49,912 nt of DNA. Source: a phage. The notes beneath the pieces were generated by a model that was given only the letters and a program-made list of their open reading frames with translations, had not been told where the DNA came from and did not search any database. Below, piece after piece: positions 19,560 to 41,015 of the stretch. The first letter of the stretch is position 1; each line of letters opens with the position of its first letter. A program made the translations under genes and the position numbers. The stretch lies in sequence record OZ335956.1; one strand, given 5' to 3'.

Positions 19560-20591
19560 AATACATGTTTGGAGTGAAAGGAATTGGCATTGAAATGTTT
19601 ATGTTGAATGGGAATTGAGCGCCGCTCTGAGTAGAATAGTTACCTACCATCGTTCCTGGTGCGCTTCTAACGTTACCTCCGCTCATGCACACGCCCTTGT
19701 ATCGGATGTTATTATATCCACCTGTAACCCTGCATATTGTGCCAGTTCTCAGTATTGGGAAAAATCCACCGCACCACTGCCAGCCGTCATTTATCGCCAT
19801 AGTCCCGCCGAGAACGAAGGGGCGTCTAACGCTTGAGAAAACGATCTGACCAGCGGGATTGCTCATAGTAATTCCCGGTCCTGGAGGTGGTGGAGTGTTA
19901 TTAAATATTACGAGTTGCACGTATACGCTCGCGCCAACGTCATCAATCCCGTTATAGTTTGCATCCCTACACCATATAGTATTTCCGTCAGATTCAAGTG
20001 TTACGTTTGGGTTATCCCACATACCGAAAGGAACGCCCTGGACTGGCAATTGAGCCTGACCGTTAACCTGGATGCCTCCAACAAATGCGGCACTCATCAA
20101 CCTTGCGTTATTCGGTATCGCTGCGAAGTTGGTTGAATCGTTGACAAGTATCCCCTGATTTCCTGCCTGAGCGGGGAGAATTTCGTAACAGTTGCCATAA
20201 AATCTCATCCTTCTTCCACCGTGACCGTTAAAATTCCCTACCGTTATTCGCCCGGTTGAATCATTAACCTTCTGAAAGCTGGTTAAATAATACACCTCAG
20301 GAATATAATATTCCCTACCGTTATTCGCCCGGTTGAATCATTAACCTTCTGAAAGCTGGTTAAATAATACACCTCAGGAATATAATTCATGTCGTCTATG
20401 TAGATGGACTGAGATGGAAGGCAAAAAGCAGTAGATCCAGGACTCATTTGCAGACCAAAATCAAAAACCGATCCCGATGAGTCAACGCCGTCCGCTTGTA
20501 TTGGTCCGCACCATGACGGTGCGCGAAGCCCCGAGGTTATCTCCATTGCCGGACGACCGTCATTTAAGTTTATGTATATTCCTTGTCCCAT
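19558..20591 (-). pseudogene. putative receptor-binding protein gene, frameshifted by a 77-bp tandem duplication
   Basis: two - strand ORFs (20283..20600 and 19558..20295) both contain YYLTSFQKVNDSTGRITVGN; removing one 77-bp copy restores a single 966-nt (321-aa) Gly/Asn-rich ORF. Confidence 0.55.
20233..20386. repeat. perfect tandem duplication, 2 x 77 bp
   Basis: 20233-20309 and 20310-20386 are identical on direct comparison; 77 is not a multiple of 3. Confidence 0.9.
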
Positions 20592-20824: not shown

Positions 20825-20879
20825 TTGTATGTCCTCGTCGTTAGTGTGATTGCATTGTATGTCGCATTTACTTTTATTG

Positions 20880-21290
20880 CAATAGCTCGATTACAATTTT
20901 TTCGTGTAACAGGTGTCTATTTTTGTAACCGGAATAGGTGTTACAAAATCGACCCCATCCGACCGCAGGGAGATATGATAAAAACTCTATATAATATATA
21001 TAGATAGATAATATTTAATTTTAGCTTTATATATATAATTATTGTTGTGTAACAGTTGTCTATCGTGTAACAGGTGATTTGATTGATTCGTCAAATTTCT
21101 ATCATATATGTTCAAAATTTAATCAATAGGGATTCCATTTATGGATATCTATGTATTTCTAAGAAAAAGCGGTTACAAGTGTTACGCAATAGACAGCACA
21201 CAAAAACTGACTCAAGTTATTGATTCAGTTGATGCTGGTTGTAACTTGAGCAATATAGACACGCAATTACACACCAATTACATGTATTCG
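20880..21290. promoter_or_regulatory. AT-rich divergent control region with repeated words
   Basis: non-coding; GTGTAACAG(G/T)TGTCTAT at 20904 and 21048, inverted copy near 21169-21195, AT-rich tract 20980-21050. Confidence 0.45.
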
Positions 21291-21291
21291 A

Positions 21292-21319
21292 TTGACTAAA
21301 TGCTGTTAATGGCTATAAT
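21292..21319 (+). promoter_or_regulatory. sigma70-like promoter for recombination operon
   Basis: TTGACT, 16-nt spacer, TATAAT, about 30 nt upstream of ATG 21351. Confidence 0.55.
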
Positions 21320-21350
21320 GGATTCATCGTAAACGAAGGAGATAAACGCA

Positions 21351-22415
21351 ATGTTTAAAGTATTCACATCAAGCCAGCTTTCTAATGACGAGTATCATAG
21401 CAATGAAGGTTGGGCGGCAGAGTATGTAAGCGGATCTAGCCTTGCTGAAATCTATCAGACTTGTCCGGCTAACTGGAGATTCAAGAAGAACGAAACGACT
21501 AAAGCGCTGGAGTTCGGTACTCAGTCGCATACAAACTTTGAGAGTAGCGATCTGTTTACTGCAACGTATGCGCGTTGTCCGTCTCCGGCAGAGTTCAAAG
21601 ATCTGATTACGTCACAAGCCGCGCTGGCTGCAAAATTAAAATCTTTCGGCCTGAAAGGTACATCCGGTAAGCAGTACCCGGACCTCATCAAAATGATGGT
21701 TGATTGCGGTGAAGATCTCAATGTTCAATATCTGATTGAACTGATTGCTGAAGCTGAGGCGCGTGCTGAAGGAAAGCAACTGGTTGACGCTGATAAATAT
21801 GATGCCTGTATGAAGATGAGAGCCATCCTTGAGCAAAATCCCGATCATGAAGCGTGCATCAATAGCGAGACGGCCCAGCGTGAGATCTCAATCTTCGGTG
21901 AGATATCCGGCGTAAAGGTTAAAGTTCGACTTGACCATTTGGACTATAAAGAGAATGTTCCAGGTCGTGTGCTGACTGGTTACGATGAGAATGGCGATCC
22001 GGTATTCGAAGACGTGATTTTTCCTGAAGCACTGATTATCACCGACTTCAAAACAACTATGAGCGCTAACCCGTTAGAGTTCCCGAGACTGGCATACAAT
22101 CACGGCTATTACCTGAAAATGGCATTGCAGCACGACCTGCTGCGACGTGCAATCCAGGCTGGCGCTTTTGAGGGTAACTTCCCGGAAGATATCCCGATCG
22201 TAGTTCGATTACTGGCGCAGGAGAAAAAAGAGCCTTACATCGCCCTTGCTTACCGCATGACTATGGAGCAAATCAGGATCGGGCGTAGTCAGTATGTTAG
22301 CGTTGTCCACACCTACAAGGCTTGTTCTGAGATGGACGTTTGGCCCGGATACGCTGGCGACGCAAGCGAGATCGAACTTGAAACGCCGTCATGGGTACGC
22401 TATCAAAACAAGTAA
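21351..22415 (+). CDS. PD-(D/E)XK-type recombination exonuclease (putative)
   Basis: 354 aa; motifs VRLDHLD ... ITDFKT ... YYLKMALQ consistent with a D/ExK nuclease core; followed by annealing protein and SSB. Confidence 0.55.
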   Translation: MFKVFTSSQLSNDEYHSNEGWAAEYVSGSSLAEIYQTCPANWRFKKNETTKALEFGTQSHTNFESSDLFTATYARCPSPAEFKDLITSQAALAAKLKSFGLKGTSGKQYPDLIKMMVDCGEDLNVQYLIELIAEAEARAEGKQLVDADKYDACMKMRAILEQNPDHEACINSETAQREISIFGEISGVKVKVRLDHLDYKENVPGRVLTGYDENGDPVFEDVIFPEALIITDFKTTMSANPLEFPRLAYNHGYYLKMALQHDLLRRAIQAGAFEGNFPEDIPIVVRLLAQEKKEPYIALAYRMTMEQIRIGRSQYVSVVHTYKACSEMDVWPGYAGDASEIELETPSWVRYQNK

Positions 22416-26506: not shown

Positions 26507-26959
26507 TTAACTAAAAATGCTATTGGTCGTTCCGATATCTTCCTTCTTCACCACTCGCATAAACTTCTTGTTCTTGCATCGCTTCTCAAGGCACTTGCCG
26601 TTACCGTCAAACTTGAGGTCGAATCGCAACCATGCCGCGCGGTATCCTTTACACCCCTGGCGACGGTAAGCGCGATGTGCAGCTTCAGCACCTTGCCACG
26701 AAATCATATTGCGCTCTTTCCAGCCTTGCACGGTCTGATTACTAACTTTCAGAGCCTTTGCGCAGGCCGCCGGGCCACCATAATATTCGATAAGAGCATC
26801 AAGTCGCGCTCGCAGTCCGGCGCGTGTTTCTTCTTTATGGATATAGAATCCGCAGCGTTGGCGAGGCTTTTTATCTTTACCGCGTCGGGTTCCATTGTTA
26901 CCATTGATGTGACGTTTATCGATTTCACCAGTTGACTCGGCAATTCGTTGCATATTCAT
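26507..26959 (-). CDS. HTH-containing DNA-binding protein (putative)
   Basis: 150 aa; segment GGPAACAKALKVSNQTVQGWK resembles a Cro/YdaS-type helix-turn-helix; basic, Cys-containing flanks. Confidence 0.45.
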   Translation of the reverse strand: MNMQRIAESTGEIDKRHINGNNGTRRGKDKKPRQRCGFYIHKEETRAGLRARLDALIEYYGGPAACAKALKVSNQTVQGWKERNMISWQGAEAAHRAYRRQGCKGYRAAWLRFDLKFDGNGKCLEKRCKNKKFMRVVKKEDIGTTNSIFS

Positions 26960-26972
26960 CTTGATTCTCCTG

Positions 26973-26987
26973 TAGCACTTTTTGCTA
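26973..26987. promoter_or_regulatory. palindromic motif site TAGCA-N5-TGCTA
   Basis: tagcactttttgcta upstream of helicase gene. Confidence 0.55.
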
Positions 26988-34085: not shown

Positions 34086-34493
34086 TCAAATTCTTCTTTC
34101 GTAAGCTGGAGCCTTGCGCACAATTCGACGTTCCGATCTATCAACGTTTCTACGTTCGCTAAACAAGTCTTCATCACTCATTTCTCCAATGTGCATCATT
34201 TCCCATGTATATCGATTGTTGTAGCCATCAATACACATCAGCTTCATCATTACCGGGCGCTTAATCTTTCCCTTGCACCAGTAAAATCCATCTTTGCAAT
34301 CAAGATAACCCTCAGTTACACAGCGTGAGCAAAACTCCTTAGATAGCGCGCTTGTAAATTCACGGCGAGTCATCCCGGCGGCCTTAGCGAATCGCTCACT
34401 TTCCTTGTGGGCGTATATAAATTTCGCTATGTGCTGTCGGGTGTATTTGTCGTATCCTTCGCAGAACCGGAACAGATCTAAAAGAAGAAGCAT
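34086..34493 (-). CDS. hypothetical Cys-rich protein
   Basis: 135-aa ORF translationally coupled to upstream gene. Confidence 0.5.
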   Translation of the reverse strand: MLLLLDLFRFCEGYDKYTRQHIAKFIYAHKESERFAKAAGMTRREFTSALSKEFCSRCVTEGYLDCKDGFYWCKGKIKRPVMMKLMCIDGYNNRYTWEMMHIGEMSDEDLFSERRNVDRSERRIVRKAPAYERRI

Positions 34494-36123: not shown

Positions 36124-36138
36124 TTGCAAAAAGTGCTA
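36124..36138. promoter_or_regulatory. palindromic motif site
   Basis: ttgcaaaaagtgcta (- strand reads atagcactttttgcaa). Confidence 0.5.
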
Positions 36139-39413: not shown

Positions 39414-39539
39414 TTATCGCTTACCCTGACCGTTGCAAGCCGGACACGTGATTCGCTGCATTGTCCAGACTCCAGTGAATAAAGGAACCAGGGTAAATCC
39501 ACGACCAGCGCACTGACTACAAACCTGTTTAACTTTCAT
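39414..39539 (-). CDS. zinc-ribbon mini-protein (41 aa)
   Basis: CSQC...CPAC pairs; leader caaccaatcagaagaggaag matches the module leader. Confidence 0.4.
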   Translation of the reverse strand: MKVKQVCSQCAGRGFTLVPLFTGVWTMQRITCPACNGQGKR

Positions 39540-39602
39540 TGCTGCTTCCTCTTCTGATTGGTTGATGTGATGAATCATACCCTGCCAACCTGGTCCAGTC
39601 GT

Positions 39603-39617
39603 TAGCAAAAAATGCTA
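39603..39617. promoter_or_regulatory. palindromic motif site, perfect TAGCA-N5-TGCTA
   Basis: tagcaaaaaatgcta. Confidence 0.55.
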
Positions 39618-40226
39618 TTCCAATAATTGCTTATTATTCCATCAATGCTGGAATAGGTGGAATAATTTTGATTCCGATTGATTGCAAATGATGAAACATG
39701 ATTATTGCATGGTGTGCAACAGTTGGTTGATTTATTGCTGAGATTACAATGATTGTGAGAGGGAGGATCTAGTGTTACCCGGTTCGCCTGGTAGTCATCT
39801 CCATTTTTAGCAAAAAGTGCTACCGATTACACTTTAACTTGTCACTGCTGTAATATTTGTCTAGAATCACACTTGTGACAAAATTACGCACTGTGACACC
39901 TCACAATATACATATAGATATATGTATCTATATAATATATATAGTATTTTTTTTATTTATATATATAGATAATTATATTGTAATAATTGTGTATAGTTGT
40001 CTTACATTGTCTAGCGTACTGTTGGCATATTTCTATCTGCATGTTTATATATACAGTACTTTTTTGAGAGCTATATATTTCTATATGGACTCTAGACAGC
40101 TAGACAAATGTTACACGGCTTAAAATCGGCTTGCAGGCATTGACAACTCTACGTCGCGCTGTCACAATGGCAATTGTTGACACGTTATGACGCCATTTAC
40201 ACGCAAATAGACAAAGAGGATATATT
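39618..40226. promoter_or_regulatory. AT-rich divergent control region (candidate origin or early promoter cluster)
   Basis: non-coding; five GGAAT/ATTCC repeats at 39617-39675; sigma70-like TTGTCA-17-TAGAAT at 39839-39867; palindrome ATAGATA-tatg-TATCTAT; imperfect palindrome TGTCACAAT..ATTGTTGACA near 40160-40185. Confidence 0.5.
39808..39822. promoter_or_regulatory. palindromic motif site, perfect TAGCA-N5-TGCTA
   Basis: tagcaaaaagtgcta. Confidence 0.55.
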
Positions 40227-40742
40227 ATGAGCAATACCAATCAGGAATTAAAAATCACCGATATGATTCGCCTAACCTGCGATGCAATGTACCGCGACAA
40301 AGGCATGAAAGAGTTCTCTTTCGTGGCTGATGATATGGCGAGAGAGGCGGTAAAATTTTACTTCCGAGATCAGGATATTTCAGATGATGAGGTGGAGCGC
40401 GGAGCTACCGGGTGGGTGAACCAGAACCAGGGCGAGGTGGAGAAGCGATTCAAGTCGGCTTTCATCACCCCGATCATTACCCGACACTTCTGCAAGTATG
40501 GCAAGGTGGCAAAGGTTAAGGTAGGCAGGAATGACGCAGCAATCACTATGATAACCGTTACCGTTACCGACGAAGAGGCTCCGGTGAAGAAGCGCCGCAG
40601 CCGGAAGAAAGTTAGCCTGGCTGATTGCCTGGACTCGTTTGTGGTGGATGTGCGTAAGTTGGCTGATAGCGAGCTAATGACACGTGATGTGAATGAGATC
40701 GTGCGCCAGATGAAAGAGCATATTGAAAAGTGTGGACTGTAA
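40227..40742 (+). CDS. hypothetical early protein
   Basis: 171-aa ORF, first gene of rightward early block; RBS AAGAGGA. Confidence 0.55.
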   Translation: MSNTNQELKITDMIRLTCDAMYRDKGMKEFSFVADDMAREAVKFYFRDQDISDDEVERGATGWVNQNQGEVEKRFKSAFITPIITRHFCKYGKVAKVKVGRNDAAITMITVTVTDEEAPVKKRRSRKKVSLADCLDSFVVDVRKLADSELMTRDVNEIVRQMKEHIEKCGL

Positions 40743-40754
40743 GGAGAGATGACT

Positions 40755-41015
40755 ATGAGCAAGATTAAGCATGACGCCCTGAAAGGTATTTTGATGCGAC
40801 TGGAGCCGGGCGAGGCATTCCAGCTTAACCCCGAAACGTTCGGATTCGTAGGCTTCTATCGGCTTGGCCTACAGATGAGTTCTCCAGCCGATGAGCTTGT
40901 CCGGTATGTGCGCAAGCAATTCGGTGTCGAGATGATTAGTCTGGGCAAAGTGCAAGGCATCCAGCTATTTATCTTCAAGCCAAATAAGATTCGTTGCTTC
41001 ACCCTGATGAAATAG
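40755..41015 (+). CDS. hypothetical early protein
   Basis: ATG 40755 with RBS AAGGAGAG; ends in motif site. Confidence 0.5.
   Translation: MSKIKHDALKGILMRLEPGEAFQLNPETFGFVGFYRLGLQMSSPADELVRYVRKQFGVEMISLGKVQGIQLFIFKPNKIRCFTLMK

Follow-up and report, generated by a model that had tools for sequence, protein, structure and literature searches.

The intergenic DNA of phage TLS carries a 21-nucleotide (nt) repeat, aaATAGCACnnnTTGnTAAAA, which has also been reported for phages T1, Rtp, and Rogue1 and whose function was left open between a stoperator, an enhancer, and an UP element; only three conventional intergenic sigma70 promoters were counted in TLS, and its packaging (pac) end was mapped by restriction digests (PMC11447400). 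T1 belongs to the classical series of seven T phages, and papers of 2020 and 2024 describe the replication origin of T1-like phages as unidentified and pac as undefined at the nucleotide level. Here, we analyzed a stretch of 49,912 nt (sequence record OZ335956.1; hereafter, the window) that belongs to a Tunavirus (T1-like, Drexlerviridae) and is essentially Escherichia phage UP30. We focused on the gap that separates its leftward and rightward early gene blocks. This gap very probably acts as a divergent early-promoter hub, and we consider it an evenly balanced question whether the whole of it is best explained as a conserved left-end control region common to T1-like phages.

The original prediction gave this gap a length of ~620 bp. 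The gap itself is real but its extent is 687 bp (39540-40226), from the ATG of a 41-amino-acid (aa) zinc-ribbon open reading frame (ORF) (39539, minus strand) to the ATG at 40227; the earlier left edge at 39603 stemmed from an upstream TTG start. According to the UP30 annotation, the gap divides a leftward block of small early genes, a DNA methyltransferase, and a helicase from a rightward block of ~23 small genes, with terS and terL 9 kb farther on. The region is 100% identical to UP30 and 87-94% identical to many other relatives. Relative to the UP30 record OX638287.1, the window has 78 additional nt; the rotated record is identical over the first 19648 nt, and the first mismatch falls at 19649. 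The phage encodes methyltransferases, and the window contains 242 GATC sites, 1 of them in the gap (3.3 expected) and 0 in a second divergent gap (20826-21351) that is treated below.

Four modules make up the gap: a leftward cassette, a core of ~225 bp, an AT-core element, and a rightward promoter. Their order is identical in Tunavirus, in the Klebsiella and Enterobacter relatives, and in TLS. In an alignment of 12 diverse Tunavirus, on which our conservation counts are based, 165 of the 226 columns from 39600 to 39825 were invariant. To the right of 39825, the sequence is a mosaic with ~30% invariant columns and exists in three alternative versions (UP30-type, T1-type, and AV106-type), all of which retain the TATATA core and the TTGAC of the rightward promoter. 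The comparative alignment put forward earlier as a check also showed that the order and orientation of the repeats are conserved across genera. The features of the gap and its borders are as follows.

39414-39539, minus strand: first gene of the leftward early block, encoding a 41-aa CxxCxGxG zinc-ribbon protein (ORF list and sequence inspection)
39567-39617, minus strand: leftward cassette P_L, with dyad TAGCATTTTTTGCTA (39603-39617), a 23-nt spacer, and the -10 hexamer TATGAT (39574-39579)
39600-39825, no strand: conserved non-coding core, with dyad-motif copies at both bounds (alignment of 12 Tunavirus)
39616-39675, no strand: GGAATA block, with TATTCC at 39616 and 39635, GGAATA at 39650 and 39659, and a variable fifth ATTCC at 39671
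39704-39792, no strand: zone of record ends of relatives and putative first pac cut (record breakpoints), with the palindrome TTGCA-TGGTG-TGCAA at 39705-39719
39808-39822, minus strand: orphan dyad motif, TAGCACTTTTTGCTA on the minus strand (motif scan; invariant in all aligned Tunavirus)
39839-39867, plus strand: sigma70-like match TTGTCA-17-TAGAAT, reading rightward into the AT core and overlapping the first composite word (consensus scan, 10/12)
39850-40114, no strand: AT-core element, copy 1, with words GTAATATTTGTCTA (39850, plus), GTAATAATTGTGTA (39980, plus), GTAACATTTGTCTA (40101, minus), and TGTGACAAAAT (39874)
39903-39997, no strand: AT core, 91% AT over 80 nt, with a palindrome (39914-39931) and a shared 17-mer (39928-39944)
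40140-40168, plus strand: rightward early promoter P_R, TTGACA-17-CACAAT with an upstream TG (consensus scan, 10/12)
40227-40742, plus strand: first gene of the rightward early block, 171 aa (phrog_11083, unknown function)

The original prediction offered a master early control region as one possible role of the gap, and this role is borne out by a complete leftward cassette on one side and, on the other, by a rightward promoter whose -35 (TTGAC) was invariant in 12/12 aligned Tunavirus. The leftward cassette is built on the dyad motif TAGCA-N5-TGCTA, which was already known and which matched the window 24 times with at most one mismatch (1.5 expected). The two perfect motif sites noted earlier in the gap are copies of this window-wide motif (TAGCAAAAAATGCTA at 39603-39617 and TAGCAAAAAGTGCTA at 39808-39822). 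Read against the 21-nt consensus, the first is TAGCATTTTTTGCTAAC on the minus strand, with one departure, and the second is TAGCACTTTTTGCTAAAAA, a perfect match. Both gap copies thus fit the repeat described for TLS and T1, and the 24 window copies are oriented with transcription and lie ~75 nt before start codons. When aligned, the copies proved to be part of a repeated cassette, found ~20 times in the window besides the gap copy, in which 22-23 nt separate the motif from a TATAGT-like -10, in many cases with a TG upstream of this hexamer; the leader CATCGAAACGA, a ribosome-binding site, and an ATG come next. TTGYTA cannot be a -35, because its distance to the -10 is too great. The dyad is centred near -42, the usual position of a class II activator, and from this spacing alone we infer that a dimeric activator binds there.

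At P_L, the motif copy lies 64-78 nt upstream of the ATG at 39539 and the leader CATCAACCAATCAGAAGAGGAAG extends down to that ATG; transcription would start near 39567 and feed the leftward gene. The P_L architecture is kept in Tunavirus, in the Klebsiella/Enterobacter phages, and in TLS. The first module would be a leftward early promoter driven from a dyad motif centred ~42 bp upstream of its predicted start. The comparison with the TLS/T1 repeat also brought out differences, since the copy at 39603 belongs to a full cassette with its -10 placed 23 nt downstream, whereas its counterpart at 39808 stands alone: a -10 is missing at the spacing seen in the cassettes, and no gene follows within 270 nt.

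Several further properties of the cassettes were recorded. Strong folding was found for 16 of 20 copies (-11 to -22 kcal/mol versus -4 to -8 for shuffles), with the -10 hexamer in the loop or the 3' arm and with stem sequences that vary among copies while the pairing is kept. Examples are located at 41013, 41752, 42806, 44093, 45667, and 47482 on the plus strand and at 36124, 36624, 37141, 38257, and 38674 on the minus strand; neither of the two gap copies gave a hairpin above shuffle level. The leader and ribosome-binding-site word ACCAATCAG(A)GGA(AT) precedes genes in ~13 copies (39553, 40236, 41814, 44156, 46250, and ~8 more). One dyad copy (26973-26987) stands between the divergent operon of a helix-turn-helix (HTH) regulator and primase and the gene of a RadD-like helicase; it is good in both directions (0 and 2 mismatches) and may serve both divergent promoters.

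On the right side of the gap, the sigma70-like promoter reported earlier was recovered as P_R. The imperfect palindrome placed near 40160-40185 was also present; it spans 40160-40182 (TGTCACAATGGCAATTGTTGACA) and overlaps the -10 and start region of P_R. The SA30RD and SA32RD annotations list a promoter at the P_R site, and equivalent promoters (TTGACA/TTGACG-17-TATTAT/GATAAT) occupy the same place in the Klebsiella phages and TLS. The fourth module would be an early promoter of the sigma70 type that reads rightward and whose -10 is covered by an operator-like palindrome.

The first rightward gene has homologues of 171-204 aa in T1-like phages, down to 49% identity. Considered as a possible DNA-binding protein, its product gave no informative family, only weak DUF7174 matches on distant homologues. 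Homologues of 191-204 aa with 49-61% identity are encoded by T1-type phages (e.g., JMPW2_001), so the statement in SA32RD of "no homology to T1 YP_003867" is probably mistaken. The copy of the ACCAATCAG-type leader word at 40236 lies just inside this ORF, and its true start might be farther downstream. At the other border, the 41-aa zinc-ribbon ORF matched Pfam DnaJ_CXXCXGXG with an E value of 2e-6, under the curated cutoff, and a small coding sequence is annotated at this position in pSf-2, EF3-1, and LHE71. An Rfam match to the type-P3 twister ribozyme lies antisense within the same ORF (39422-39495, plus strand) but scored 27.5 bits versus a gathering threshold of 39.9 (E = 0.0036) and is probably due to chance.

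The second module, the conserved core, contains the mapped genome end of T1, which the original prediction had missed. The RefSeq record of T1 has a 2800-bp terminal repeat annotated from position 1, this position corresponds to 39704 in the window, at the palindrome TTGCA-TGGTG-TGCAA, and the end and start of the record join collinearly across the core. The records of JMPW1, JMPW2, phi2457T, FCWL1, and Chapo break at the same base. Further breakpoints occur in Shfl1 (39758), SH2 (39771), and IME167 and Henu5_2 (39791/2), which makes four distinct points within 39704-39792. TLS, a more distant relative, has an equivalent layout that comprises the leftward cassette, a repeat block with two copies of AGACCGATTGGTCT, ~80 nt, and then the record end at the mapped pac end. 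Since the T1 genome end, the other breakpoints, and the TLS pac end coincide there, we read the core as the packaging-initiation region, and it is likely that the genome end or pac, whose approximate location was already known, lies inside it.

We also considered whether the core could encode a product. An RNA gene was rejected, as the core showed no ORF and no codon periodicity (25/20/16), its fold did not exceed shuffles on either strand (z = -1.2 on both), and the Rfam scan gave no match within the gap, its sole sub-threshold match being the twister-P3 hit outside it.

The left part of the core is occupied by the GGAATA block. The five GGAAT/ATTCC repeats within ~60 bp that had drawn attention to the gap were all found (39617, 39636, 39650, 39659, and 39671; 39617-39675 overall), and this is the sole site in the window with at least 4 copies per 80 nt. 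Five copies per 60 nt were reached in 0 of 300 Markov-1 simulations, in which the maximum was 4, reached in 7. Four of the five copies extend to the hexamer GGAATA/TATTCC and form two inverted pairs, and the fifth (GATTCC) is variable among relatives. T1 carries the array in the same order and orientation. In the Klebsiella and Enterobacter phages, two TATTCC and two GGAATA are likewise kept in order and orientation at ~80% identity, with diverged intergenic DNA around them. In TLS, the AGACCGATTGGTCT pair occupies the position of the block. We found no description of a cross-genus GGAATA array in the literature. A 10-mer, GGAATAGGTG, is common to the block (39650-39659) and the 21-kb gap (20931-20940, directly before TGTTACAAAAT), which could reflect chance or a further common site.

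It is possible, at somewhat less than an even chance, that the GGAATA hexamers form a packaging recognition array. The second module would then work through its 2+2 inverted hexamers, with the terminase making a first cut 40-130 bp to their right (39704-39792) and packaging proceeding rightward. The pac sequence of phage P1 has hexamer arrays and that of SPP1 is laid out as pacL/pacC/pacR; as in these phages, short repeated words here stand beside a putative cut zone, and the gap contains T1's physical left end together with the TLS pac end obtained by mapping. The resemblance has limits, since the site is 9 kb from terS, neither inside nor adjoining it, and GATC, the Dam site, is not clustered as in P1 pac, occurring once in the gap.

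Several observations weigh against the packaging interpretation. Some record ends follow convention, not measurement, as in KanT1, which is oriented like T1. In the literature, we found no cut, transcription start, or replication start mapped at the nucleotide level in the present phage or its relatives, and no transcription-start or terminus mapping for a Tunavirus. The distance to terS is unlike that in many pac phages. TerS is ~50% identical both to that of the Klebsiella phages, which keep GGAATA, and to that of TLS, which has another repeat, and so does not track repeat type; this comparison is uninformative, because the two TerS proteins are about equally diverged. Finally, T1 reportedly uses a pseudo-pac site in the P-Q interval of lambda. 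That interval showed no similarity to the core, either with an nhmmer profile of the core or by local alignment, and contains no GGAATA, a result that is uninformative to mildly negative.

Alternatively, the GGAATA block could serve the leftward promoter as an upstream regulatory site for an activator or for a repressor that shuts it off, and not as the packaging recognition signal, with the nearby genome end set by other core sequences such as the TGCA palindromes. We give this a little less than one chance in three. The block abuts the P_L dyad motif at about -50 to -110 from the predicted start, T1 position 1 falls on a separate palindrome (GTTGCA-N5-TGCAAC), and both the TerS comparison and the lambda interval are in its favor. 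However, none of the other ~20 cassettes has a comparable upstream block, and the block is the part of the gap that is best conserved across genera. Moreover, TLS has a different tandem palindrome there, beside its mapped pac end, and a lineage-specific change of this kind fits a recognition array.

The third module, the AT-core element, proved to be present twice in the window. The two AT-richest 80-nt stretches are at 39907 (91% AT) and 20973 (88% AT), and the next reaches 76%. The palindrome ATAGATA-TATG-TATCTAT, described earlier, was confirmed at 39914-39931. The 17-mer CTATATAATATATATAG, reported to be shared with the other control region, was found at 39928 and 20987, and these are its sole copies in the window even at 2 mismatches (0 expected). 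All features noted in the original prediction were recovered, and its coordinates were off by 0-1 nt. A local alignment of the two AT cores (39.9 kb and 20986-21066), in matching orientation, scored 59, compared to 24 +/- 3.4 for dinucleotide shuffles (z = 10.4). Copy 2 lies in the divergent gap upstream of the exonuclease VIII block, a gap that is 92-94% conserved in all Tunavirus, and contains no GGAAT cluster, only a single GGAATA. Its features are the following.

20854-21319, no strand: AT-core element, copy 2, with flanking promoters (alignment and word scan)
20882-20854, minus strand: leftward promoter TTGCAA-17-TACAAT
20906 (plus), 21049 (plus), 21256 (minus), 21268 (minus): words of copy 2, with TGTTACAAAAT at 20939
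20973 onward, no strand: AT core (88% AT), with the 17-mer at 20987
21292-21319, plus strand: rightward promoter TTGACT-16-TATAAT, ahead of exonuclease VIII

Both AT cores are surrounded by the same short words, and copy 1 has TGTNACA and TGTCTA/TAGACA words around its core in addition to those listed above. The counts in the window and in the two gaps were as follows.

TGTNACA: 10 in the window, 8 in the two gaps
TGTCTA/TAGACA: 14 in the window, 9 in the two gaps
TGTAAYANNTGTNTA, strict 15-mer: 5 in the window, 5 in the two gaps
GT(T)AAY-N3/4-YGTNTA, relaxed word (0.76 expected): 9 in the window, 7 in the two gaps

At both copies the words face inward, on the plus strand left of the core and on the minus strand right of it. 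Folded as single-stranded DNA, copy 1 of the element showed self-complementarity far above shuffles (z = -4.6). The ORF at 39857-40123, which the original prediction had judged to be low-complexity and probably non-coding, indeed translates into an I/Y-rich low-complexity peptide and is not coding, because 1-nt indels in T runs break it among near-identical relatives. The promoter-like match at 39839 is kept only in the UP30-type version of the module and provides weak evidence.

The two-copy arrangement extends to other lineages. In a Klebsiella phage, the exonuclease VIII block is likewise preceded by a second AT core, which differs only slightly from the left-end copy found in sister phages; the lineage word GTAAGAT/ATCTTAC surrounds both. 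In TLS, the left-end gap and the stretch preceding recE are again the two AT-richest windows; their alignment spans ~140 nt, and GAACA/TGTTC words occur in both. The two copies thus occupy the same two syntenic sites in three lineages, each with its own flanking word. Words that are alike between sites within a lineage and unlike between lineages are the pattern expected of a lineage-specific DNA-binding protein at both sites, and binding of the words by such a protein appears probable from the sequences compared. In every lineage examined, each copy is also followed, 150-250 bp downstream, by a near-consensus sigma70 promoter directed away from it. We found no description of paired AT-core elements with lineage-specific words in the literature.

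Two finer covariation tests within Tunavirus failed. The words at 21 kb did not follow the swapped 40-kb module and first gene, as the 21-kb gap was 92-94% conserved regardless. Within the genus (12 genomes, sites paired by contig), covariation between TGTCTA and TGTATA at the two sites held for 1 of 3 variant carriers (T1), while JMPW2 and DELF2 broke the pattern.

The function that we tentatively favor for the AT-core elements, at appreciably less than an even chance, is that of replication origins. In the third module, a phage-encoded site-specific protein would bind the words and the AT core would melt, which most likely would serve replication initiation through loading of helicase and primase, one origin being placed at 39.9 kb and the other at 21.0 kb. 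Negative supercoiling in the wake of the promoters that read outward on either side would aid melting. The more specific proposal, that Drexlerviridae maintain the two members of the pair alike and that this pair, one copy beside the packaging start and the other upstream of the recE-erf-ssb operon, constitutes the T1-family origins and is opened by promoter-generated negative supercoiling, is more doubtful still. The elements present the clustered repeated words and the adjacent AT-rich stretch of iteron-type origins, and the gene complement of T1-like phages includes a primase and a DUF3987 helicase but lacks a polymerase. Candidates for the initiator, and only candidates, are a Cro-like HTH protein (26507-26959, minus strand), a 135-aa protein beside the DUF3987 helicase (34086-34493, minus strand), and the product of the first rightward gene.

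Described origins provide partial parallels. In satellite phage P4, two separate cis sites, ori and crr, share one short word (the TGTTCACC repeats), and the words annotated at P4 ori flank an AT-rich stretch in mixed orientation; the GTGAACA/TGTTCAC word of the TLS lineage resembles the P4 octamer. In contrast, the Tunavirus words differ from those of P4, and here both copies have a full AT core. Homology to P4 ori/crr was rejected: the repeats were confirmed in the P4 record, but neither TLS gap contains TGTTCACC and P4 alpha showed no detectable similarity to the DUF3987 helicase of the present phage (E = 0.3). Because alpha is unrelated to this helicase, the likeness to P4 is one of analogy, not of family membership. 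The annotated lambda ori similarly has clustered protein-binding words, the iterons, beside an easily melted AT-rich stretch; unlike the present elements, which are intergenic with words facing inward from both sides, it lies within the gene of its initiator and has iterons that are repeated directly in tandem. Phage SPP1 is a two-origin phage, with oriL and oriR.

Other findings argue against an origin. The whole window contained 0 DnaA boxes (TTWTNCACA), no consensus site for integration host factor was present in the gap, and GATC was depleted, not enriched, in both gaps; on these grounds, a DnaA-dependent, oriC-like origin was rejected. The strong flanking promoters point away from the AT core instead of transcribing it, and some words overlap promoter elements in operator-like fashion (39850 over the promoter at 39839 and 40160 over the P_R -10). 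The words were also considered as T7-type primase recognition sites, as they contain GTC; this idea was dropped, the Klebsiella and TLS words being without GTC.

The principal alternative, to which we give roughly one chance in three at best, is that the AT-core elements are transcription-control arrays. A phage regulator bound to the words would switch the adjacent near-consensus sigma70 promoters (P_R, the exonuclease VIII promoter, and the divergent leftward promoters), and the TA-rich core would either provide flexible or curved DNA upstream of them or trap RNA polymerase. The constant position of the copies upstream of such promoters and the overlap of some words with promoter hexamers and start regions agree with this explanation. 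So does the presence of at least 2 conventional TLS promoters beside the TLS elements (TTGACG-17-GATAAT and TTGACT-17-TATAAT). Furthermore, this phage lacks an RNA polymerase of its own and so must time its early operons through DNA-binding factors. On the other hand, most words are 100-300 bp from the promoters that they would control, and the ~20 remaining early-block promoters are built on another motif, without these words. Operators do not need an ~80-bp stretch of ~90% AT, yet this stretch is the best-conserved shared feature of the copies. Inverted word arrays around an easily melted core are moreover standard origin anatomy, as annotated for P4 ori.

The original prediction combined the two halves of the gap differently, taking the GGAAT repeats as the iterons of a single origin and the AT-rich stretch as its unwinding element. 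Both features are real and lie within one gap, but this combination is now very improbable. The hexamers and the AT core are separated by ~230 bp of separately conserved sequence, and the AT core has its own bracketing words. The cluster is not part of the AT-core element, since the 21-kb duplicate is without it, and TLS retains the AT core despite having a different repeat block. Lastly, AT-rich DNA readily yields palindromes and promoter-like matches, and the count of the latter in the gap is only ~2 standard deviations above shuffles, but the repeats can hardly be functionless chance products of a low-complexity spacer, given that simulations never reach the observed clustering, that order and orientation are conserved across genera, and that the core is conserved far above its surroundings.

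T1-like phages are frequent contaminants of laboratories and fermentations and are candidates for phage therapy. For these phages, the present map yields defined predictions, namely, a packaging-cut zone of ~90 bp, a four-hexamer candidate recognition array, and two candidate origins of ~270 bp. If the favored functions are correct, early transcription, replication initiation, and packaging initiation would be tied into one 700-bp region. If the origin assignment fails, the elements would still constitute a conserved two-site regulatory system of the immediate-early operons, read by a lineage-specific protein.

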